DNA of 64,000 bases from Pseudomonadales bacterium (GCA_050185825.1 JBFWZA010000013.1:76445-140444); one strand, 5' to 3'. Positions 43,768-55,187 are shown, counted from the first letter of the stretch. A program made the numbers and translations. The notes: generated by a model from the sequence alone, not told the origin.

Positions 43768-43787
43768 TACTGTATGTATGTACAGTA
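43768..43787. promoter_or_regulatory. LexA (SOS) operator
   Basis: TACTGTATGTATGTACAGTA gives perfect CTGT-N8-ACAG with flanking TA/TA, matching the gammaproteobacterial consensus TACTGTATATATATACAGTA. It sits in the divergent intergenic region. Confidence 0.85.
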
Positions 43788-43881
43788 TCACTTCAGCAGG
43801 GCTGTTGCCCTGGACTTGTCAGCCACTGCGCGCCCGTTAGACTACGCCGCTGCCCTGTTGGCAAAACAAGCTTCCGAGTCC

Positions 43882-44664
43882 ATGCAGCAGATCAGACGCC
43901 CTGCCCCCGTAGCCCTCGCAGCACCCTGGCTCATCGCCGCGCTGCTGCTGTCGGGCTGCAAACAGGTCGAGGTGGTGGACGAAACCCAGATCACGCTCAA
44001 CGCCATGCAGGCGCAGCTCGACGAGGTCGAGCGGCAGATCGAGGCCTCCCGGCAGGCGCTGGATCAGCTGGAAGCCGCGGACGTGAACCGCACCGAGTAT
44101 CTGGACACGCGGCTGGCCACCATCGGCGAGCGCCTGGAAGCGCTGCCCGGCGAGATCCACGTGAGCTGCCCGGAGCCGAAGCCGGTGAAAACGGAGTGCA
44201 AGGAAGTCGCCAGGGTCGTGGTCACCTCCGACAAGATGCTGGTCGGCGAGCTCGAGCGCATCTGGATCGAGCCACCGGGTGTGAGCGTGGTGGCGCGTAT
44301 GGATACCGGTGCCACGTCGAGCTCCGTGCATGCCAACAACCTGGAGCGCTTCGAGCGGGACGGCGAGGACTGGGTTCGCTTCGACCTGCCCATCGGCCCG
44401 GACGAATCCGTGACCCTGGAGCGACCCATCGTCCGGCACGCCCGAGTCCGGCAGCAGGCGGATCCGGAAGGATCCCGGCGCCCGGTCGTCCAGCTGCGCA
44501 TCCGTCTCGGCGAGATACAGGACACCTTCGAGTTCACGCTGGCCGATCGATCCCATCTCGAGAACGAGTGGATCCTCGGCCGGAATTTTCTCACCGACGT
44601 CACGCTCGTTGACGTCAGCAGGCAATTCGTTCAGCCTCGATACATCCCGCCGAAAAATCAGTGA
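43882..44664 (+). CDS. lipoprotein with a C-terminal retropepsin-like (COG4067 / RimB-like) aspartic peptidase domain
   Basis: ORF 43774..44664 trimmed to ATG 43882. Lipobox LLLSGC, a coiled-coil-like segment, then the DTG motif (ARMDTGATSSSVHA) and ILGRNFL. Confidence 0.7.
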   Translation: MQQIRRPAPVALAAPWLIAALLLSGCKQVEVVDETQITLNAMQAQLDEVERQIEASRQALDQLEAADVNRTEYLDTRLATIGERLEALPGEIHVSCPEPKPVKTECKEVARVVVTSDKMLVGELERIWIEPPGVSVVARMDTGATSSSVHANNLERFERDGEDWVRFDLPIGPDESVTLERPIVRHARVRQQADPEGSRRPVVQLRIRLGEIQDTFEFTLADRSHLENEWILGRNFLTDVTLVDVSRQFVQPRYIPPKNQ

Positions 44665-44669
44665 TTTAA

Positions 44670-46181
44670 GTGACGAATCAGGGTCCTTTCCTGTTTCTGG
44701 TCGCCCTGCTCGTCGCGGCAGGCATCGGCACCGCCGCGTTCCGGCACGAGTCCTATCGCATACCACTGCTGCCCGGTGAGCAGCAGACCGTCTGGCAGGT
44801 GGAAGCCAGAGTCGAGTACATGGCCCTCGGCGGCGCCACCCAGATCTACCTGACGCTGCCTCCCGAGCAGTCGGGCTTCCGGCTGATCGAGGAAACCGGC
44901 GCCGCCCCGGGTTTCGGCTTCAGCGTCACCCAGCAGGGCATTCAGCGTCGAGCCCACTGGACGAAGCGCGACGCCTCCGGCGTGCAGACGTTGTTCTTCA
45001 AGCTGGCGCTTGTCCAGGATTCCGGACTGGACGTGGAGGCCATCCCGCCGCGGGGGCCGGTGGATTCCCCGCACTGGGACGAGCCCTATCGGACCGCGGC
45101 CTTTCAGCTGATCGATACCCTGCTGCCCATCACCGCCGACCCGCCGTCCATGGCGGTGCAGCTTATCGACATCATGAACCGGCGGCCCGCAGACCCGAAC
45201 GTCAGCCTGCTGCGCGACCGCTACAGCGATCCCATACTGCTGGCCCGTCTGCTCAACACCGCCGGCATTGCGGCACGAACCGTGCAGGTGCTGGAGCTCG
45301 AGGACGGCCGACGCAGGCAGGGTCTGGCTGAGCATGTGGAGGTTTGGCATCAGGGAACCTGGCACCTCTACCACACCGGCACCGGGCGCGTGCCCGAGGA
45401 TGCCAACCTGCTCCTCTGGCAGACGGAGACGCCGTCCGTGCTCGAGGTCGCGGGCGGCACCAACTCCCGGGTCACCTTCTCCATGATCTCCCAGGCCCGC
45501 TCCATGCTGGAGCTGGCCGCGGACAGCCGGGCACCCGGATTCTCACTGTCGCTCTACAGCCTGCCCATCGCCGAGCAGGGGATGTTCAAGCTCATCATGC
45601 TGCTGCCGGTAGGCGCGCTGGTGGTGGTCTTCATGCGCATTATCGTCGGCATCCAGACGTCCGGCACGTTCATGCCCGTGCTGATCGCGCTGGCCTTTCT
45701 GCAGACCGAGCTCCTGCCGGGACTGCTCAGCTTCATTCTGGTGGTCTCCATCGGATTGCTGATCCGTTCGTACCTTTCCAGCCTGAACCTGCTGCTCGTT
45801 GCCCGGATCGCCACCCTGGTGATTCTGGTGATCGGCATCATCTCCGTGTTCAGCGTGGTGAGCTATCAGCTCGGCCTCATCGGCGGTCTCACCATCACCT
45901 TCTTCCCGATGATCATCATGGCCTGGACCATCGAGCGGATGTCCATCATCTGGGAGGAGGAAGGACCGCCCGAGGTGCTGCTCCAGGGCGGGGGCAGCCT
46001 GCTCGTGGCAACGCTGGCCTACCTGCTCATGGACCAGCAGCTGGTCCGCCACCTGGCGTTCAACTTTCCGGAGCTGCACCTGGCGATTCTCGCCATGGTG
46101 CTGATCCTCGGTCGCTACACCGGCTACCGGTTGCTCGAGCTGCGCCGTTTCGCCAGCTTCGGGAACATCGTCCGAAAGTGA
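44670..46181 (+). CDS. inactive-transglutaminase domain fused to a 7-TM module
   Basis: 503-aa ORF with a GTG start 5 nt after the previous stop. It has an N-terminal TM helix, a periplasmic roughly 280-aa domain, and a C-terminal block of about 7 TM helices. The architecture matches the family linked to RimK-like ligases. Confidence 0.7.
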   Translation: MTNQGPFLFLVALLVAAGIGTAAFRHESYRIPLLPGEQQTVWQVEARVEYMALGGATQIYLTLPPEQSGFRLIEETGAAPGFGFSVTQQGIQRRAHWTKRDASGVQTLFFKLALVQDSGLDVEAIPPRGPVDSPHWDEPYRTAAFQLIDTLLPITADPPSMAVQLIDIMNRRPADPNVSLLRDRYSDPILLARLLNTAGIAARTVQVLELEDGRRRQGLAEHVEVWHQGTWHLYHTGTGRVPEDANLLLWQTETPSVLEVAGGTNSRVTFSMISQARSMLELAADSRAPGFSLSLYSLPIAEQGMFKLIMLLPVGALVVVFMRIIVGIQTSGTFMPVLIALAFLQTELLPGLLSFILVVSIGLLIRSYLSSLNLLLVARIATLVILVIGIISVFSVVSYQLGLIGGLTITFFPMIIMAWTIERMSIIWEEEGPPEVLLQGGGSLLVATLAYLLMDQQLVRHLAFNFPELHLAILAMVLILGRYTGYRLLELRRFASFGNIVRK

Positions 46182-47191
46182 GCTGGATCAGCCCGTTCAC
46201 CCTGCGGCGGATCGGCGTGCTCGGCATGAACCGCCGCAATGTCGCCTACATCAGTCGCTACAACGCGCGCTCCAACTTCCCGCTGGTGGACGACAAGCTG
46301 AAGACCAAGCTGATGGCCCAGAAGATGGGGCTGTCGGTGCCCGAACTCCTGCATGTGATCACCACTCAGCACGACGTGGAGGGCATCAACACGGTGCTCA
46401 GCACCCTGAATCAGTTCGTGATCAAGCCCGCCCAGGGGTCCGGCGGCAAGGGCATCCTCGTCATCCGCGGCCGGACCCCGGAAGGCTTCAAGAAGAGCAG
46501 CGGCGCCGTCATCGGCATCAACGACGTCAAGCGCCACGTGACCAACATCATCAGCGGCCTGCACTCCCTGGGCGGCCGTCCGGACGTGGCCATCATCGAG
46601 TCGCTGGTGGAGACCTCGGACATCTTCGAGCAGGTGAGCTTCGAAGGCGTCCCGGACATCCGGCTCATCGTCTTCAAGGGCTTTCCCGTGATGGGCATGC
46701 TGCGGCTCGCTACCAAGGCCTCCGACGGCAAGGCAAATCTGCACCAGGGCGCGGTCGGCGTCGGCCTGGACATCGGCAGCGGTCGCGCCGTGGCTGCGGT
46801 TCAGCACAACCGGGTGCTCGTCTTTCACCCGGACACCGACGTGCCGCTCAAGGGAATCGCCGTGCCCAACTGGCCGTCCCTGCTCAGCCTGGCCGCGCGC
46901 TGCTACGAGGGGACCCGGCTCGGCTATCTGGGCTGCGACCTGGTCATCGACCGGAACCGGGGACCGCTGCTGCTCGAGCTGAACGCGCGGCCCGGACTGT
47001 CCATCCAGATCGCCAACGCCGAGGGGCTGCTGCCGCGCCTCCGGAAAATCGAAAGCCTGGACACTCCGTACATGAGCGTGGACGAACGGGTGCAGGCCTC
47101 CATGAGCTGGTTCGACCGCAGCTCCGCCGCCGAGCAGGGTACCCTCTGGTCAGAGGAAGACCACGAAGAGAGGGCCGCCGCACCCGCGTGA
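46178..47191 (+). CDS. alpha-L-glutamate-ligase-like ATP-grasp protein (RimK-related)
   Basis: The tail of track ORF 45344..47191. The GTG start at 46178 overlaps the previous stop (GTGA). ATP-grasp pattern (FVIKPAQGSGGKGILVI, DIRLIVFKG, ANLHQGAVGVG, CDLVID...LLLELNARPG). Confidence 0.8.
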   Translation: MSWISPFTLRRIGVLGMNRRNVAYISRYNARSNFPLVDDKLKTKLMAQKMGLSVPELLHVITTQHDVEGINTVLSTLNQFVIKPAQGSGGKGILVIRGRTPEGFKKSSGAVIGINDVKRHVTNIISGLHSLGGRPDVAIIESLVETSDIFEQVSFEGVPDIRLIVFKGFPVMGMLRLATKASDGKANLHQGAVGVGLDIGSGRAVAAVQHNRVLVFHPDTDVPLKGIAVPNWPSLLSLAARCYEGTRLGYLGCDLVIDRNRGPLLLELNARPGLSIQIANAEGLLPRLRKIESLDTPYMSVDERVQASMSWFDRSSAAEQGTLWSEEDHEERAAAPA

Positions 47192-47213: not shown

Positions 47214-48308
47214 TCAGCGCAGCAGCCAGTCCAGAATATGGTCGTTCTCCTCGCGCGGGTAGGTGTGGGAGAGATCGTCGATCTCCCGGTAGGTCAGGTC
47301 CACGCCGGCCCGGGTCAGCGCGTCCGCCGCCATGCGTGCCACCTCGATATCGAACATCCAGTCCAGCGCCCCGTGGGTAAGGTAGACGGGCAGTCCCTGC
47401 AGGCGTTCGGCATCCGCCACCTCCACGAGCATCGGGTGAAAGCTCGCGGCGATGGGCGCGAGGTGGGTAAACGGCGAGCCGGTGCGCAGGGCGGACAGAT
47501 AGGAGAACGTGCCGCCGTCCGACATGCCCGTGAGCAGCATGCGTCCGGGGTCCACCTGCCAGCGGTCGCGTACCCAGTCCAGGATGGCTTCCAGGTTGTC
47601 GCTGTCCACGTCTGGACCCATCAGCGACCAGGTGCCTTCCCGGGAGGTGGGCGACACCAGTATGACGCCCCGGGTGCGCGCATCTCTGAGCCAGGACCAG
47701 AGAAAGCTCCGGCCGTGCCCGCTGCCGCCGTGCAGCGCCATGACCAGCGGCATCGCGGTGCCGTCGTAGTACTCGGGCACATAGAGCGAGAATCCGCCAC
47801 GCTCCGTCGGCTGGTTACCGGCGTGGAGGATGCCGACCTCTTCGCGCGCCGGATCGGCTGTGGCGAGCCTGGCCTGCACGGCTTCGCTGGCGCGGTGCGG
47901 ATCGGAGAGGTAGAAGCGGCTCACCGGCGGCAGCATGGCGGCTACGGGATACAGCGCCTCGACCGCGCGCGTGCTGAAGCTCATGGCACGGTAGGCGCCC
48001 ATGGCCGGATTACGTTGTTCGAGGCAGGCGGCCAGCCCGTCGAAGGCTTTCAATGCTTCGGACGCCGACTGCCTGGCATGCTCCGAGAAGCGGCTGAGAT
48101 GCTCCGGCCAGGCAACCGCCGAGAAGGTCTCGAGGCCCGCAGCGATGGCCCCCCGGAAAGCGCCGACCTCGGGGACCAGGCGCGGCAGGTCCGGCGGGTG
48201 CAGGTGCCGCCCCACGTAGGCGAGTGCATCGAGGCCCGTCAGCAGCGGCGGGATCAGGGCCGTTGTGGCCTCCAGCAGCACGTCCGTGTCATCGTCCGTA
48301 TCCGTCAT
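47214..48308 (-). CDS. esterase of the phospholipase/carboxylesterase family with an unknown N-terminal domain
   Basis: 364-aa ORF. The C-terminal half has LVMALHGGSG, the nucleophile elbow GMSDGG and THGALD. The first roughly 150 aa have no motif I recognise. Confidence 0.7.
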   Translation of the reverse strand: MTDTDDDTDVLLEATTALIPPLLTGLDALAYVGRHLHPPDLPRLVPEVGAFRGAIAAGLETFSAVAWPEHLSRFSEHARQSASEALKAFDGLAACLEQRNPAMGAYRAMSFSTRAVEALYPVAAMLPPVSRFYLSDPHRASEAVQARLATADPAREEVGILHAGNQPTERGGFSLYVPEYYDGTAMPLVMALHGGSGHGRSFLWSWLRDARTRGVILVSPTSREGTWSLMGPDVDSDNLEAILDWVRDRWQVDPGRMLLTGMSDGGTFSYLSALRTGSPFTHLAPIAASFHPMLVEVADAERLQGLPVYLTHGALDWMFDIEVARMAADALTRAGVDLTYREIDDLSHTYPREENDHILDWLLR

Positions 48309-48426
48309 CCGCTCGCGTCTCCCGGCCCGGGGCCTACACTATAGTCCACCCGGCTTCCGCGCTGTTCCTTGCCCTTCGAGCGCCCAGCGTGCATAAGTCA
48401 ACGGCAGAACGCAGTCGAGATCCACG

Positions 48427-48690
48427 ATGACCAAATCCACGACCGTTCGCTGCAACGGCATTCCCTACCGTCAGGGAATTCTCGAGGTGCGCCACGACAT
48501 GCATCCCGGATTCATCAATCTGGAGTGCTGGATGCTGGACCCGGCGATCGACATCACCCGGCTCGAACCGGCAGCGGCGGAGCTCCCCGACTCGGCAGTC
48601 ATCGCCAACACCGAGCTCGAATTGAGCCTCGCGCAGGCCGGGGAGCTCGTCCGGCTGCTGCAGGAGGCAATCCGCATGGTCGAGCGCTAG
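48427..48690 (+). CDS. small protein of unknown function
   Basis: 87-aa ORF with an ATG start and moderate-to-high GC3. No recognisable motif. Confidence 0.5.
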   Translation: MTKSTTVRCNGIPYRQGILEVRHDMHPGFINLECWMLDPAIDITRLEPAAAELPDSAVIANTELELSLAQAGELVRLLQEAIRMVER

Positions 48691-48692
48691 TC

Positions 48693-48884
48693 GTGACGGA
48701 GCGTGTTTCCCACGTCGAGCTCGCCATAAAACTGCTGCGCGACGCTGCGGGGTTCTTCCGCAACGTCGCCGACCAGAACCCGGCGATTGCCGATGAGATG
48801 CGCGACAACGCCGACGTCTACGAAAGGGTCGCGACGCTGCTCAGCGGTGAGCCCAACGGAACCATCGAGCTGGAGGATGACTGA
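48693..48884 (+). CDS. small acidic protein of unknown function
   Basis: The 63-aa tail of track ORF 48369..48884, starting at GTG 48693, which is 2 nt after the previous stop. It is predicted to be helical and ends with ELEDD. Confidence 0.45.
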   Translation: MTERVSHVELAIKLLRDAAGFFRNVADQNPAIADEMRDNADVYERVATLLSGEPNGTIELEDD

Positions 48885-48911
48885 TCCGGCCTGGCAGACG
48901 GATCAGTCATC
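48876..48911. terminator. 13-bp perfect inverted repeat spanning both convergent stop codons
   Basis: GATGACTGATCCG - 10-nt loop - CGGATCAGTCATC. Each arm encodes the Asp-Asp-stop end of one of the two convergent genes. Confidence 0.45.
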
Positions 48912-49466
48912 GGCATCGGACCCGTCGTCGGCACGAAGTGCCGCCCAGCGCTCGAACGACACCAGCTGTGGCAGGTGTTCGTCAACGGATCCCGTCCATA
49001 TCCAGCCGCCGGCCTGGTCGGCAAGCACCCGGATTTCCTCCCGTTCTTCGGAAGACAGCGACACGCCGCCGTAGTCGTCGGCGCTGCCGTCGAGGGCCCG
49101 CCACAGCAGGTACTCGTTACCGAGGACCCAACCCGCCGCGTAGCACTCCTCGCTGAGCTCCGACATCCGGCGGTAGAGCAGCCGTGCCCAGGGGTCGGTC
49201 ATAGAAGGATGGGAGAGATCCGGGCGCAGCACCTCGGCCAGACAGCCGTCGTGATAGGGCGGGTAGTCTCCCACCGCGTTCCGCTCCGTCGGCTTGCCGC
49301 AGAAACCGCAGTTCCGGGGCACGCAGCAGGATTCGGCCCGGGCGTGACTGCTCTCGCTGGCCGAGGGTCCCGGGCGGATCACCACAACGTGGGCGCGCCG
49401 GCAGTTGCCGCACACCCACACGTCGCTGGGTGCGCCGTCAGGCGTGAGGAGCTGATAGCTGTTCAT
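48903..49466 (-). CDS. Cys-rich protein of unknown function
   Basis: 187-aa ORF. The N-terminal 70 aa carry CGNC...CC...CGFC...C (zinc-ribbon-like). The C-terminal half is acidic with conserved-looking Trp residues (AAGWVLGNEYLLWRA, GGWIWTG). Confidence 0.55.
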   Translation of the reverse strand: MNSYQLLTPDGAPSDVWVCGNCRRAHVVVIRPGPSASESSHARAESCCVPRNCGFCGKPTERNAVGDYPPYHDGCLAEVLRPDLSHPSMTDPWARLLYRRMSELSEECYAAGWVLGNEYLLWRALDGSADDYGGVSLSSEEREEIRVLADQAGGWIWTGSVDEHLPQLVSFERWAALRADDGSDADD

Positions 49467-49602
49467 CGGATGCGACCCGGCGGCGGTGGTCGCCGAACTT
49501 CTCGCCCTCCACCCGTTCGGTCCGGAAGCCGTTGACCTTCCAGGGCTTGCAGAGCTTGCAGCCGGCCCGGCGGCTGCGCGCCCGTTTGCGCTTGTGGTGC
49601 AT
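49438..49602 (-). CDS. 54-aa highly basic CxxC mini-protein (not in the ORF track)
   Basis: My own translation is MHHKRKRARSRRAGCKLCKPWKVNGFRTERVEGEKFGDHRRRVASDEQLSAPHA. AGGAAG lies 7 nt upstream of the ATG. By hand count, 41 of the first 43 codons end in G/C. The 3' end overlaps the 187-aa gene by 29 nt. Confidence 0.5.
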   Translation of the reverse strand: MHHKRKRARSRRAGCKLCKPWKVNGFRTERVEGEKFGDHRRRVASDEQLSAPHA

Positions 49603-49756
49603 CCGTTGCTTCCTGTATCTGAGAGGAAGGCGAGCCTACGCCCCGCACCCCGCGCGGTCCAGACCCGACTCCCGTGCCGGCCTCGGCGTCCTCGAGCATT
49701 GCGCCCCGGCGAGCGCCATCAGACACTTGATTGCCGTCGATCTGCAGGACGTGAAC

Positions 49757-50641
49757 ATGCCGCTGACTGTTGCCGAACGCATCCTCTACTCCACCACCAA
49801 CCTCACGGCGTACCATGGCGGAGCCGTCATCGGCACGGGCACCGGCTTTTTCTACACCCTGCCCCTGGGGCCCGACAGCATTTATTACCTGATGCTGACC
49901 AACAAGCACGTCCTCACGGGCGCCACGGAGATCGCGGTGAAATTTCACATTGCCGCGGACGACCCCGACGGTGCACCGAGCGGCAGGGTGAGAACCTGGA
50001 AGATCGACGTGCGTACCTTCAACGCGAAGGACAACCTGCGGATCATCGACCACCCGAGGGACGATGTGGACCTGTGCGCGATCAACATGACCCCCGACTT
50101 CATCGAGGCGGCCGAGAAAGGCTACCGGTTCTTCGCCACGCCGATGTCGCGGGCCTTCATTCCGGGCCCCGAGGACTGGCAGAGCTTCGATGCCCTCGAG
50201 GAGGTCACCATGATCGGCTGTCCGCGCGGCATCTACGACGAGGCGAACAACATCCCGGTCATGCGGCGCGGCATCACGTCCACCCCGATACTCAAGGACT
50301 TCAACGGCAAGCCGGAGTTTCTGGTGGACATGGCCTGCTTCCCGGGGTCCTCGGGCTCGCCCATTTTCCTCTTCAACCGGGAAGGGTATTTCGACAAGGC
50401 CAAGAAGACATTCCTCTCGGGCAAGCACCGGTTCCACCTCGTGGGAATCCTCTATGCCGGACCGCTGATCCGCGCCGACGGTCACGTTACGATAAGCGAC
50501 GGGCTCAGGGTCGAGGTTTCCACACCCATGCATCTCGGGTTCGCCATCCGCTCGACGCAGATCCTCGGCATCGAAGCCGAGATCCACCGACGACGCGCAG
50601 CCAAGGGATATCCCCGTCCGACGGACAACGCGGGCGGTTGA
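49757..50641 (+). CDS. trypsin-like (S1/PA-clan) serine protease without a signal peptide
   Basis: ORF 49532..50641 trimmed to ATG 49757. Catalytic triad candidates are His in LTNKHVL, Asp in DDVDLCAI and Ser in FPGSSGSPIF. The N-terminus is not hydrophobic. Confidence 0.75.
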   Translation: MPLTVAERILYSTTNLTAYHGGAVIGTGTGFFYTLPLGPDSIYYLMLTNKHVLTGATEIAVKFHIAADDPDGAPSGRVRTWKIDVRTFNAKDNLRIIDHPRDDVDLCAINMTPDFIEAAEKGYRFFATPMSRAFIPGPEDWQSFDALEEVTMIGCPRGIYDEANNIPVMRRGITSTPILKDFNGKPEFLVDMACFPGSSGSPIFLFNREGYFDKAKKTFLSGKHRFHLVGILYAGPLIRADGHVTISDGLRVEVSTPMHLGFAIRSTQILGIEAEIHRRRAAKGYPRPTDNAGG

Positions 50642-50708
50642 GCGCCCGCTCGCATCTCCCGGAGCGAGTGGTTAAAGTCGAAACGGGTAAGGATGCCGGG
50701 GGAGCACC

Positions 50709-51584
50709 GTGGCAGAGACCGCTGATTCCACCGCCCGGGTGCAGCGCTTCGACCGCAGCGCCGAGGACGTGGGCAACATCGTCATGCTGGAGCACGTCAA
50801 TCTGACCGTGCCCGACCAGGGCCTGGCGGCGCTGTTCTATGTCACCGGCCTCGGCTTCACCCGGGATCCCTACATCGACTTCGGCACTTTCAACATGTGG
50901 GTGAACCTGGGCGAGCAGCAGTTTCACCTGCCGAAATCCCAGGCGCAGGTTTTCCGGGGCCGGATCACCGTGGTGGTGCCGGACCTGGACGATCTCGAGC
51001 GGCGCCTCGAGACCGTCGTCAAACCGCTGGCCGGCACCGAGTTCGCCTGGAAGCGGGCAGACGACCACGCGGCCGTGACCTGCCCGTGGGGCAACACCAT
51101 CCTGGCCTACGCACCGGGTACGTTTCCGCGTATGGACCTCGGCATGCCTCGCGTGGAGATGCGCGTGCCCGAGGGGACGAGCGCCGCCATCGCCCGTTTC
51201 TACCGCGAGGTGATGCAGTGTCCCGCGAGCGCCGCGGACGGGGTGGCCAGGGTGCGAATGGGCTACAACCAGGCGATGCACTTCGTGGAGACCGGGGAAG
51301 CGCTGCCCGCCTACGACGGCCATCACATCGCCGTCTACGTGAGCCACTTTTCCGGCCCCCATGACTACCTGGCCGAGCGGAACCTGATCACCGAGGAGTC
51401 GGACCAGTGCCAGTACCGGTTCCAGGCCATCGTCGACCCGGACACCGGCGCGACCCTCACCGAGCTCGAGCACGAGGTGCGTTCCCTGTCGCACCCCATG
51501 TACCACCGGCATCTGGTCAACCGGAACCCTGCCGTGAGCTTCTTCACCTACCGGAAAGGCGCGGAGATCTTCACGCCCACATGA
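50709..51584 (+). CDS. VOC-fold (glyoxalase/dioxygenase-like) protein of unknown function
   Basis: 291-aa ORF with a GTG start 5 nt after GGGGGAG. Two beta-alpha-beta-beta-beta-like modules with candidate metal ligands ([22 protein letters not shown]). The stop overlaps the next start (ATGA). Confidence 0.6.
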
Positions 51585-52423
51585 ACGAATCCAAGACCAT
51601 CGCCAGACAGGCCGAGCTCCGCGAGGAACCCTACTACCTGCCGCTCGGCGACGAGGTGGCCGAGTTCGAGGCCGCCTATCACGCCCGGCTGCCCGTGCTG
51701 CTCAAGGGCCCGACCGGCTGCGGCAAGACCCGCTTCGTCGAGCACATGGCCTGGCGCCTGTACCGCCGGCAGCGCGCCTCCGAACTCGCCATCCCGCTCA
51801 TGACCATCGCCTGCCACGAGGATCTCACCGCCACGGACATGGTGGGGCGCTTCCTGCTGCAGGGCGACGAGACGGTGTGGCGGGATGGCCCGCTCACCCA
51901 GGCGGTGCGCACCGGTGCCATCTGTTACCTGGACGAGATCGTGGAAGCCCGCAAGGACACCACCGTGCTCATCCACGCGCTCACCGACCACCGGCGGCTG
52001 CTGCCCATCGACAAGACCGGCGAGCTGCTCTGTGCGCATCCGGACTTCCTGCTCGTGATCTCCTACAACCCCGGCTACCAGAGCGTGCTCAAGGACCTGA
52101 AGCCCAGCACCCGGCAGCGCTTCGTGAGCCTGTCCTTCGACTACCCGGACGAGACGCGCGAGGCGACCATCATCGCCCACGAGTCAGGCGTGGATCGCGC
52201 CATCGCGGAGCAGCTGGCCCTGATCGGCGCCAAGGTCCGCAACCTCCGCGAGCACGGCTTCGAGGAGGGGGTGAGCACCCGGCTGCTGATCTACGCCGGC
52301 AGCCTGATGCAGCAGGGCATCTCGCCGCGGCGCGCCGCCGAGATCGGCATCGTCAGCGCCGTCTCGGACGACGAGGCGGTGCAGCACGCCATCGCCGACA
52401 TCGTCGACGTGATCCTGCCCTGA
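51581..52423 (+). CDS. CbbQ/NirQ/NorQ-type MoxR AAA+ ATPase
   Basis: The tail of track ORF 51407..52423, starting at ATG 51581. Walker A GPTGCGKT, Walker B ICYLDEI, and a family-typical [11 protein letters not shown]...LKPSTRQRF. Confidence 0.9.
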
Positions 52424-52444
52424 GACGTCCGCCGGGAGCCGCCC

Positions 52445-54442
52445 TTGGTCGCGCTGGTTGACGTCGAGTCCGCGCTCACCCTGTTCGCCGAGGGCATCGC
52501 CGGCCGCTACTACCACGTCAAATCCACAGCCGAATTCAGCTCGCGCCGCTTCGACCTGGACACGTCGAGCTCGGCCATCGCGCCGGACACGCTCTACGTG
52601 CCGGAGCAGATCGACTATCCGGACGGTGCGGGCTACCGGGTGCTGGTGATGCTGCAGCTGGGCCAGCGGGAGTTCGGCACCTTCCGCTTCGACATGGCTA
52701 CGGCGCGCCGACGCCTGCCGACCCTCGAGCATCTCGGCGTGCCCGAGCCGCGGCCGCGGGAGTCGGACTACGCGCTGTTCTTCCGCCACGTCCCCCACCC
52801 CGCGCTGTTGAAGCGGATCTTCCTGGCCGTGGAGCAGATCCGGATCGTCAGCCGCCTGCTCGAGCGCTATCCGGGCCTGGCTGCGCACCGCCAGCGTTTC
52901 CGGGATCACCGGTATCCAGCGGATGCGGTGCTGCCCGTGGACGACCTGGCCGGGCTCCTCCTGGCACTGGAGCTCACGGCCGAAGGTGTGCCGCCGTCGC
53001 GGCTGGATGACGCCACGGGACTTCTGGCCCCGGCGCTGTCCCGGCTCGACACGATCAGAGCATCGGCTGCGGACGTCTTCGACGCCGCCGCCCTGGCACT
53101 CGATCTGTATCTGGCCTGGTCACCGCTGCTGCCCGGCACCGCGTTCGATACCGTCCCATCCGGGCAGAATCTGGAGGACGCTCTGGAGTGGATGCAGCGC
53201 GAAGCCCGGCTCGAAGACTGGGAGCAGGCGCTCGACGACCTGGACCAGAGCCTGCTCATCGAGCTGCCGGAGGGCACCGAGGTGGACATGGCCCAGGTGA
53301 ACGAGCTGCAGGATGCGGGGCTGCGGCAAACGGACATCGACCTGAAGGCACTCACCGACGAGCGGGAAAACCTGAAGCGACGGGTGGACATGGAACGCTC
53401 GGCGCTCGCCGACGCCATGGGAACCGCCAAGCCGGAGGCACGCAGCTACCGCTACGACGAGTGGGACCATCTCGGCCACCGTTACCTGCGCCACTGGTGC
53501 CGGCTCTACGAGGAGCGCCTGGAAGGTCACGGCACGGCCGATCCGGAGGCGCTCAAGCGGGTGGTCCGCGAGCACGTGCCCGCGGTGATGCGCCAGCTCG
53601 AGCAGATCCGCCCGCTCGGCTATCAGCGGGTGCACCGGGTGGCCGACGGCGACGAGCTCGACTTCAACGCGCTCATCGAAGCCCGCCAGGACGTGCGTGC
53701 CGGCATCAGCCCCGACGAGCGCGTTTACTCACGCCGCGATCGGGTTCACCGCGACGTCTGCGCCGCGTTCCTGGTGGATCTGTCCGCCTCCACCGACGAC
53801 CCCATCGAGCCCCCCGAACCGCCACCGCCGCTGCCGGAAGGCGTGGAGATCAACCTGCGCGATCCCTACGACGACGACCTGAGTCTGAACCTCGCCGCAG
53901 CCGAGGAACGACGCCGGATCATCGACGTGCAGCGGGAGTCCATGCTGGTGATGTCCGCGGCCCTCGAGCGGCTCGGCGACAGCTACGGCATCTACGGCTT
54001 CTCGGGTTACGGCCGGGACTGCGTGGAGTTCTATGTTGCGAAGGAGCCGGACGAGCCGTTTACCGGCCGGACGCTGGAGGCCATCGCCAGCATGCGGCCG
54101 CGACGCAGCACCCGCATGGGGCCGGCCATCCGCCATGCCGCTGCCAAGCTCGTCGCCTCGGGCAACGCCATGAAGCTGCTGATCATCCTCTCGGACGGAT
54201 TTCCCCAGGATTCGGACTACGGGCCGATCCGTGGCGACCACGAGTACGGGCTGATGGACACCGCCAAAGCGCTGACGGAGGCCAGGATCAAGGGCATCGA
54301 GGTTTTCTGCGTGACGGTGGACAAGTCGGGCAACGACTATCTGAAGCGCATGTGCCCGCCGCACCGCTACCTGATCATCGACGAGATCGAGGACCTGCCG
54401 GAAAAGCTCTCCACGGTGTACCAGACCCTGAGCGGGCGCTGA
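52445..54442 (+). CDS. CbbO/NorD-type VWA-domain protein
   Basis: 665-aa ORF with a TTG start 7 nt after GGGAG. C-terminal VWA domain with MIDAS VDLSASTDD, plus LIILSDGFPQD. The partner ATPase gene lies immediately upstream. Confidence 0.85.
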   Translation: MVALVDVESALTLFAEGIAGRYYHVKSTAEFSSRRFDLDTSSSAIAPDTLYVPEQIDYPDGAGYRVLVMLQLGQREFGTFRFDMATARRRLPTLEHLGVPEPRPRESDYALFFRHVPHPALLKRIFLAVEQIRIVSRLLERYPGLAAHRQRFRDHRYPADAVLPVDDLAGLLLALELTAEGVPPSRLDDATGLLAPALSRLDTIRASAADVFDAAALALDLYLAWSPLLPGTAFDTVPSGQNLEDALEWMQREARLEDWEQALDDLDQSLLIELPEGTEVDMAQVNELQDAGLRQTDIDLKALTDERENLKRRVDMERSALADAMGTAKPEARSYRYDEWDHLGHRYLRHWCRLYEERLEGHGTADPEALKRVVREHVPAVMRQLEQIRPLGYQRVHRVADGDELDFNALIEARQDVRAGISPDERVYSRRDRVHRDVCAAFLVDLSASTDDPIEPPEPPPPLPEGVEINLRDPYDDDLSLNLAAAEERRRIIDVQRESMLVMSAALERLGDSYGIYGFSGYGRDCVEFYVAKEPDEPFTGRTLEAIASMRPRRSTRMGPAIRHAAAKLVASGNAMKLLIILSDGFPQDSDYGPIRGDHEYGLMDTAKALTEARIKGIEVFCVTVDKSGNDYLKRMCPPHRYLIIDEIEDLPEKLSTVYQTLSGR

Positions 54443-54466
54443 TCACCGCTGGCGGGCGCAAAAAAA

Positions 54467-54491
54467 ACGGCCCGCACAGGCGGGCCGTTTC
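54467..54491. terminator. bidirectional rho-independent terminator
   Basis: A7 - ACGGCCCGC - ACAG - GCGGGCCGT - TTT, between the convergent cbbO-like and BI-1-like genes. Confidence 0.8.
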
Positions 54492-54509: not shown

Positions 54510-55187
54510 TCAGTCGTCGCCCATCCCGAAGAGAATGAGCAGCCACTGGAACATGTTCCAGATCGACATGTACAGCGTGGTGGTGGCCAGGATGTAGTTG
54601 GTCTCGCCGCCGTGGATGATGGCGCTCGTCTGGTAGAGGATCATGCCGCTCATGAGCAGCACTACCGCGGCACCGATGGCGCCGTAGAACGCGGACAGAT
54701 CCAGGAACCAGCTCAGCATCACCACCGCGAACAGCACCAGGGCGCCCACCATCAGGAAGTTGCCCATGAAGCTGAAGTCCTTGCGGGTGACCAGCGCGAT
54801 GGCCGACAGACCGACGAACGCGACAGCGGTGCTGCCGAGCGCCATCGTCACCACCTGGCCGCCGTTGGGCATACTGAGGAACATCTCGATCACCGGCCCG
54901 ATGGTGAAGCCGAGGAAACCGGTGAACGCAAACACCGAGGCGATGCCCCAGGCACTGTTGGCTGTCTTGTAGACCAGGAACAGCAGGCCCGCCCAGCCGA
55001 GCAGGGTCCACAGGCCCAGATACGGCGCATCGATGGCCATGGCGAAGGCCGCCATTGCCGCGCTGAACGCCAGGGTCATGCCGAGCAGCAGGTAGGTGTT
55101 GCGCAGAACCCTGTTGATCTCGACGCCGGTACCGACCCCGGGTCGGGCAGCCGGTCGGGCAACGGTTGCAGCGGGATGTTCAGCCAT
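54510..55187 (-). CDS. Bax inhibitor-1 / YccA family membrane protein
   Basis: ORF 54510..55208 trimmed to ATG 55187. Seven TM helices, N-terminal NRVLRNTYLLLGMTL, and a C-terminal LLILFGMGDD. Confidence 0.85.
   Translation of the reverse strand: MAEHPAATVARPAARPGVGTGVEINRVLRNTYLLLGMTLAFSAAMAAFAMAIDAPYLGLWTLLGWAGLLFLVYKTANSAWGIASVFAFTGFLGFTIGPVIEMFLSMPNGGQVVTMALGSTAVAFVGLSAIALVTRKDFSFMGNFLMVGALVLFAVVMLSWFLDLSAFYGAIGAAVVLLMSGMILYQTSAIIHGGETNYILATTTLYMSIWNMFQWLLILFGMGDD

Follow-up and report, generated by a model that had tools for sequence, protein, structure and literature searches.

Which protein does a CbbQ/NorQ-type ATPase pair serve when none of its usual partners is encoded beside it? 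To our knowledge, few clients of MoxR-VWA pairs are known: RuBisCO, the nitric oxide reductase cNOR and, perhaps, two further enzymes, fumarate reductase and CO dehydrogenase. The question is raised by a stretch of 64,000 nt from a Pseudomonadales bacterium (GCA_050185825.1, JBFWZA010000013.1:76445-140444; hereafter the window), which holds 58 likely genes of ordinary heterotroph content, as judged from Pfam tables. Within it, four consecutive open reading frames (ORFs) on the plus strand encode a trypsin-like serine protease (49757-50641), a two-domain VOC-fold protein (50709-51584), a MoxR AAA+ ATPase (Q, 51581-52423) and a protein with a C-terminal VWA domain (O, 52445-54442). A sequence-only reading of this DNA had delimited all four ORFs correctly and had offered two explanations of the set: either the Q/O pair serves the VOC-fold protein as a client not known before, or the four genes make up an ATPase-gated proteolytic module. 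The comparisons described below speak for the former.

The comparison set comprised 80 loci with a relative of the VOC gene, one per GTDB species, and was searched with the window proteins. These loci belong to Pseudomonadales/Azotimanducaceae-like metagenome-assembled genomes of related uncultured marine and soil bacteria; two of them (L001 and L002) are copies of the window itself, and the closest locus is L003, whose VOC protein is 86% identical to that of the window. In 76 of the 80 loci the Q gene stands directly after the VOC gene, the median distance to the first aligned residue being 21 nt. Wherever the sequence extends far enough (74 loci), O comes after Q, directly in 70 and past a cassette of 3.1-3.3 kb in the remaining 4. 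In the window, the start codon of Q overlaps the stop codon of the VOC gene (ATGA), as the earlier reading had seen. Across the loci, identity to the window proteins amounts to 61-86% for VOC, 73-94% for Q and 44-86% for O, and the trio stays together where the flanking genes (esterase and Bax1-I) have moved away or are lost, L080 and L082, which have neither flank, being examples. Q/O adjoins no other gene as tightly as it adjoins the VOC gene, and the protease gene was found in none of the 80 loci. From gene order and conservation, voc-Q-O (50709-54442) is thus a predicted three-gene operon, conserved and separate from the protease. Of the two linkages to the cbbQ/cbbO-like pair that could be followed through other genomes, that of the VOC gene stood and that of the protease did not.

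The cassette found between Q and O lies on the same strand and consists of genes for an acetoacetate-decarboxylase-family (ADC) protein, a short-chain dehydrogenase/reductase (SDR) and an amidohydrolase_2 protein. It occurs in L052 (9870-12812), L038, L049 and L060, and also in L096 (3911-6820), a metagenome contig retrieved via the N-terminal domain of O, and it may hint at the pathway in which the VOC enzyme takes part.

Q is a protein of 280 residues with a Walker A motif GPTGCGKT and a Walker B motif YLDEI. It contains the AAA_5 (PF07728, E=7e-31) and CbbQ_C (PF08406, E=2e-28) domains, in agreement with its earlier designation as a MoxR-class ATPase, and matches the solved structures of CbbQ (5c3c, 2e-101; 6l1q, 2e-100) about as closely as that of NorQ (9qh4, 2e-96), in each case over its full length. 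By sequence, Q belongs to the CbbQ/NorQ (CGN) subfamily of MoxR AAA+ ATPases, and ATPase activity is predicted for it.

The second member of the pair, O, consists of two parts of different character. Its C-terminal part (53441-54442) carries a VWA domain recognised by Pfam, preceded by a beta-hairpin 'finger' (residues 333-358), both delimited by alignment with NorD (9qh6_G, 9qhd_G). In the AlphaFold2 model of O (predicted local distance difference test score, pLDDT, 72), strands are formed by residues 333-341 and 346-358, and residues 335-453 align with NorD 349-464. [quoted passage not shown] The N-terminal part (52445-53434), of approximately 330 residues, is by its modelled helices a mostly helical, lineage-specific domain followed by a linker. 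O aligns with NorD only over residues ~300-665, and residues 1-330 have no counterpart in NorD by phmmer, profile hmmsearch or blastp, a difference established at the level of sequence (the deposited NorD chains, of 217-286 residues, match VWA-only models). Moreover, none of 260 plasmid-borne NorD/CbbO-like proteins covers residues 1-250, and a word-indexed search with residues 1-330, whose view was confined to the clade, returned only six matches, each lying in an operon of this type and two being split genes in error-prone assemblies. The N-terminal domains of NorD and of CbbO are held to be client-specific and to have no relation to each other (PMC9976466), and we propose that the N-terminal domain of O is likewise its client-recognition part.

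Two further features of O may be recorded here. Directly after the DxSxS loop of the MIDAS lies a Pro/Asp-rich insert of about 35 residues (residues 452-490, 53798-53914; DDPIEPPEPPPPLPEG...RDPYDDD), which is conserved in the O family and absent from NorD. The nearest plasmid relative of the VWA half (38% identity) is found on the Miltoncostaea oceani plasmid NZ_CP064358.1 (L089, 3178-6888), where the order is a CbbQ-like gene, a gene for a 362-residue hypothetical protein and the VWA gene, with thiolase and acetoacetate-decarboxylase-family genes near; this is a further orphan Q/O pair.

Could the client of the pair be encoded elsewhere, for instance a nitric oxide reductase or another metalloenzyme, with the VOC gene being a conserved neighbour that has no direct relation to Q/O? 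Both PGAP and JGI label O as 'nitric oxide reductase activation protein NorD', its C-terminal half is 26-32% identical to true NorD, and relatives of the VOC protein exist that have no Q/O. However, true norQD sits in norCBQD clusters (PMC9976466), whereas tblastn with NorB and NorC of R. phaseoli, taken from a true norCBQD cluster, gave no match at E<=1e-3 in the window and all loci (1.35 Mb; none within 8 kb of the operon in 76 loci). The N-terminal domain of O, the part that is client-specific in NorD and CbbO, is unlike that of NorD, and the VOC gene adheres to the pair more closely than any other gene does. On the evidence of the window and the loci, a client elsewhere is, in our judgement, improbable. 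RuBisCO is likewise missing from the picture: tblastn with spinach RbcL found no match in the window or the loci, and the Pfam tables contain none either. The same tables of called genes list no CO dehydrogenase gene in the 64 kb, so that the absence of all three classical partners, claimed earlier for this stretch, holds. The pair is mislabelled by annotation pipelines, as are most 'orphan' pairs, which receive the names NorD or CbbQ.

The VOC gene itself starts with GTG behind a GGGGGAG Shine-Dalgarno sequence and encodes 291 residues. For the single protein, sequence searches of Pfam, NCBIfam and PDB gave nothing above threshold, and PF00903 appears as a weak match in 27 of 34 family members. 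The fold was recognised from the AlphaFold2 model (pLDDT 71), which shows the paired beta-alpha-beta-beta-beta modules of the VOC superfamily and with which Foldseek retrieved GLOD4, glyoxalase I and catechol 2,3-dioxygenases with a probability of 1.0 at 10-15% identity. The two-module architecture assigned to this protein from sequence is thus borne out, and the three His/Glu motifs singled out at that time hold H29, H206 and E256, which are invariant in 34 diverse relatives together with N31, T51-R-D-P54, N66, Q71, H73, R258 and H262. We regard H29, H73, H206 and E256 as candidate metal ligands. In an alignment built on a family profile, H29 and H206 fall on the two beta-1 histidines that bind the metal in methylmalonyl-CoA epimerase, and the VOC protein is plausibly a metalloenzyme. 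As the invariant histidines are split between the N- and C-terminal halves, the putative ligand pattern resembles that of glyoxalase I and the epimerase more than the 2-His-1-carboxylate triad of type I extradiol dioxygenases; towards the catechol dioxygenases, identity is only 10-15% and the TM score 0.25-0.28.

The family to which this protein belongs is large, with more than 7700 close homologues and, in a separate count, 1687 clusters at 50% identity, of which 336 reach E<=1e-30. It has a protist branch, represented in EukProt transcriptomes (e.g. Ancoracysta twista) and on short metagenome contigs (P0177, P0207, P0216, P0224, P0232, P0252, P0258), many members of which end in ...VNRxGxxGI(Y/F)CNQ, a conserved tail missing from the bacterial proteins. 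A protein-mode search found no VOC match on plasmids. Longer relatives (P0143, P0160, P0238 and others) were considered as possible fusions and set aside: the additional parts are further VOC modules, one weak coproporphyrinogen-oxidase match, or nothing recognisable.

VOC folds also serve as binding proteins, the bleomycin-resistance proteins being an example. The VOC protein might accordingly be an accessory subunit, adaptor or sensor, e.g. of a small molecule or metal, while the client is another protein, such as the esterase encoded upstream. The latter is an alpha/beta-hydrolase of 364 residues (47214-48308, minus strand), a conserved divergent neighbour with weak matches to the Pfam families DLH, Abhydrolase_2/3 and Esterase; its C-terminal half is esterase/dienelactone-hydrolase-like, and its N-terminal ~170 residues are uncharacterised and without a known domain. 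It stands directly upstream of the VOC gene in 52 of the 80 loci and shares the intergenic control region with it. Nevertheless, the esterase is displaced by 0.5-6.7 kb in 16 loci and absent in at least 4 with room for it, so that VOC-Q-O is intact in about 20 loci where the esterase has moved or is gone. Also, the candidate ligands are fully invariant and accompanied by enzyme-typical polar residues, even in bacteria lacking Q/O and in protists. We consider the role of an adaptor to be unlikely, somewhat more so than that of a bystander.

What we favour instead is that Q/O acts as a chaperone dedicated to the VOC enzyme, loading its metal or repairing it. The VOC enzyme would then be a candidate for a new class of client; we give this explanation roughly even chances. 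Put in its fuller form, with slightly less assurance, the proposal is that a soluble VOC-fold metalloenzyme represents a third dedicated client class of CbbQ/NorQ-type pairs, and that its ATP-driven metallation or reactivation is specified by the new N-terminal domain of O. Comparative evidence supports the earlier suggestion of a new client (76 of 80 loci with VOC-Q-O, changing flanks, the N-terminal domain of O). Gene order and its conservation, the domain assignments, the motifs and the lack of the protease in the other loci are observed; that O touches the VOC protein, the choice between loading and repair, and the identities of metal and substrate are matters that we infer.

A possible course of events may be drawn by analogy with NorQD and CbbQO. 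Q would assemble into a hexameric ring, the pore of which would be plugged by the VWA finger of O, and the lineage-specific N-terminal domain of O, together with its MIDAS, would grip the VOC protein. Hydrolysis of ATP could then pull the VOC protein open, allowing the catalytic metal to be loaded, a metal that is oxidised or of the wrong kind to be expelled, or an inhibitor that binds tightly to be released. In the model system, NorQD inserts FeB into cNOR, and NorD's N-terminal domain and MIDAS act as two leverage points (PMC13036017, PMC9976466).

With NorQ/NorD (9qh4, 9qh6, 9qhd), the present pair shares the full-length match of Q, the VWA domain of NorD as the best structural match of O, the adjacency of the genes and the order of Q before O. 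It differs in that no norCB is near, that O shows no sequence relationship to NorD over its first ~330 residues, that the 35-residue insert follows the MIDAS, and that the partner gene encodes a soluble VOC-fold protein and not a membrane-bound relative of haem-copper oxidases. CbbQ/CbbO (5c3c, 6l1q) has in common with it a Q protein that is as close to CbbQ as to NorQ, the CbbQ_C domain and the same logic of one dedicated soluble enzyme client encoded beside the pair; here, however, a RuBisCO gene is found neither in the window nor in the loci, and the gene of the proposed client precedes Q with a start/stop overlap. A third parallel is offered by XylT, a small [2Fe-2S] ferredoxin that re-reduces Fe(III) and reactivates catechol 2,3-dioxygenase. 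[quoted passage not shown] In the literature searched, we found no paper linking CbbQ/NorQ-type pairs to glyoxalase, VOC or extradiol proteins, in agreement with the earlier impression that the combination is undescribed.

Several observations weigh against Q/O being a chaperone of the VOC enzyme. Every genome with the operon comes from a single order (Pseudomonadales, Azotimanducaceae-like), so the proposed link between VOC and O draws so far on synteny within that order, and part of that synteny may be inherited rather than selected, since the esterase and Bax1-I neighbours are also often conserved. The operon tolerates unrelated passengers, as seen from the ADC, SDR and amidohydrolase_2 genes that part Q from O in L096 and in four genome loci. 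Residues 34-77, the segment of the VOC protein that is conserved best, are poorly modelled by AlphaFold2. Finally, five distant bacterial relatives of the VOC protein have no Q/O next door, and neither have four loci within the clade (L028, L050, L062, L065), where the VOC gene is surrounded by SDR, alpha/beta-hydrolase, acyl-CoA and flavoprotein genes; when these four were compared with the others, no residues separated Q/O-linked from Q/O-less VOC proteins. As such proteins show no systematic difference in sequence, the VOC fold would seem to have no intrinsic need for Q/O. Given the distant relatives and the four in-clade loci, the association of VOC with Q/O characterises a single clade; CbbQO, similarly, is found with some RuBisCOs only.

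The protease remains to be placed. Its identification as an S1-type enzyme was correct (Pfam Trypsin_2, E=3e-9), and the triad can be read in the translation as His (TNKHV), Asp (DDVDLC) and Ser (GSSGSP). Its closest kin are solitary trypsin-like serine proteases of one family: the match to PDC-S45 of PADLOC is near full length (E=3e-83, profile positions 14-286 of 293, i.e. 273 positions), and that to the phage family phrog_7688 reaches E=9e-49. Relatives of 32-43% identity are scattered over plasmids of Acinetobacter, Moraxella, Bacillus, Arthrobacter and Legionella, which represent several phyla, and the window protease shows no feature that would distinguish it from this patchily distributed, near end-to-end matching family.

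That the protease, the VOC protein and the MoxR-VWA pair could together constitute a proteolytic or conflict (defence) module, with the pair controlling the protease, was suggested by the four same-strand genes with only a weak hairpin between protease and VOC, by the match of the protease to a candidate-defence family, and by the occurrence of MoxR-VWA pairs in predicted conflict systems (PMC8195603). The hairpin is indeed present (50630-50649) and is no better than shuffled sequences (z=-1.2). The remaining evidence runs the other way. The protease, absent from all 80 loci, sits in extra DNA of ~2.3 kb; PDC-S45 is listed in PADLOC as a single-gene defence candidate, for which no anti-phage testing was found in the literature searched, where a single paper mentions the name; the relative on plasmid pB18-7, the one inspected, stands alone; and Q and O have no match among the PADLOC defence models beyond generic AAA+ similarity.

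In addition, a conserved promoter-like motif separates the two genes. This motif, CTCGCATCT-N12-GGTTAAAGTCG (50646-50679, plus strand), lies 3' of the protease stop codon and ends 29 nt upstream of the VOC start codon. It occurs in full in 8 loci, the closest ones (L001 and L002, the window's own copies, included), and its core TTAAAGTC in ~15 further ones; a consensus promoter scan reported no sigma-70 site. We take the motif to be, presumably, the operon's own promoter region. On synteny, membership of the protease in the module is rejected, the four-gene reading is largely refuted, and a proteolytic module has become highly improbable.

The extra DNA that carries the protease lies between the esterase and VOC genes (48368-50645, its left junction being uncertain by ~60 nt). 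Besides the protease gene, it contains an ORF of 187 residues on the minus strand (48903-49466; GC content at third codon positions 0.82), which has no match in Pfam, PADLOC or PHROG and occurs in none of the 80 loci, and possible small ORFs on the plus strand (48427-48884). In blastn against L003, positions 48202-48309 and 50649-50800 of the window align, and 74 nt in L003 replace the stretch between them. The extra DNA is flanked by a direct repeat of 17 nt (48309-48325 and 50646-50662; CCGCTCGC[G/A]TCTCCCGG; 16 of 17 positions identical, spacing 2337 nt), the left copy of which abuts the esterase start codon and the right copy of which is the conserved motif upstream of VOC. We did not accept this repeat as a clean target-site duplication: a conserved TATAGT box and a match to L003, CCGCGCTG, lie inside the bracket formed by its copies, and for this reason the true left junction is probably near 48368. 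The box in question, CACTATAG at 48337-48345 (TATAGT on the minus strand), is found at the same distance from the esterase start in L003, L004, L006, L008 and L010 and is likely the -10 box of the esterase gene. Taken together, the ~2.3 kb are a strain-specific insertion, unrelated to the voc-Q-O operon and carrying a candidate mobile defence gene.

The gap between esterase and VOC holds differing extra genes in 16 other loci and a toxin-antitoxin-like pair in L097. Passengers seen in the gaps of L025, L027, L029, L033, L044, L047, L067, L075, L079 and L097 are an SDR, a dehydrogenase resembling cytochrome c, TPR-like proteins, very large FG-GAP/VCBS-like proteins, lipoproteins of small size, another small VOC protein or a DUF433/DUF5615 pair. 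Since the same divergent intergenic region carries different genes in different loci, it is, by gene content, an insertion hot spot.

At the other end, the operon faces a convergent gene for a membrane protein of the Bax1-I/YccA family (54510-55187, minus strand; PF01027, E=5e-41), which adjoins it in 48 loci and is absent within at least 4.8 kb in 9. The GC-rich hairpin between the two genes (54465-54490), preceded by A8 and followed by TTT, was omitted by the consensus promoter/terminator scan and was judged by folding and by a scan of our own. At -29.5 kcal/mol (z=-3.1) it is real, and in this respect the terminator placed earlier at 54467-54491 stands; its 8-T run, however, is on the minus strand and serves the Bax1-I gene, the plus strand having only TTT. 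It is a candidate bidirectional terminator with its canonical U-tract on the minus strand, and at least as much the terminator of Bax1-I as that of the operon. Just upstream of the esterase, positions 43774-47191 hold a three-gene set that opens with a retropepsin-like 'ATP-dependent Zn protease' (PF05618) and also encodes an inactive transglutaminase fused to a seven-transmembrane (7TM) domain (PF14400/PF14402) and a sugar-transfer-associated ATP-grasp protein (PF14397). This association of genes is known and poorly understood.

For the reading of such loci, same-strand neighbours ought not to be taken for one module until comparative data are at hand: the protease is a mobile add-on. What is new here is a candidate client and its proposed recognition domain; the MoxR-VWA machine itself was already known. 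Should the proposal be true, the operon would provide a simple, fully soluble model for metal exchange through the opening of a protein by MoxR-VWA machines. The pair, being fixed beside one small soluble enzyme in dozens of genomes, allows a tractable test of the 'twist and stretch' model proposed for metal insertion by NorQD. It also opens a way to the function of a VOC family that is large and uncharacterised, its protist members included.

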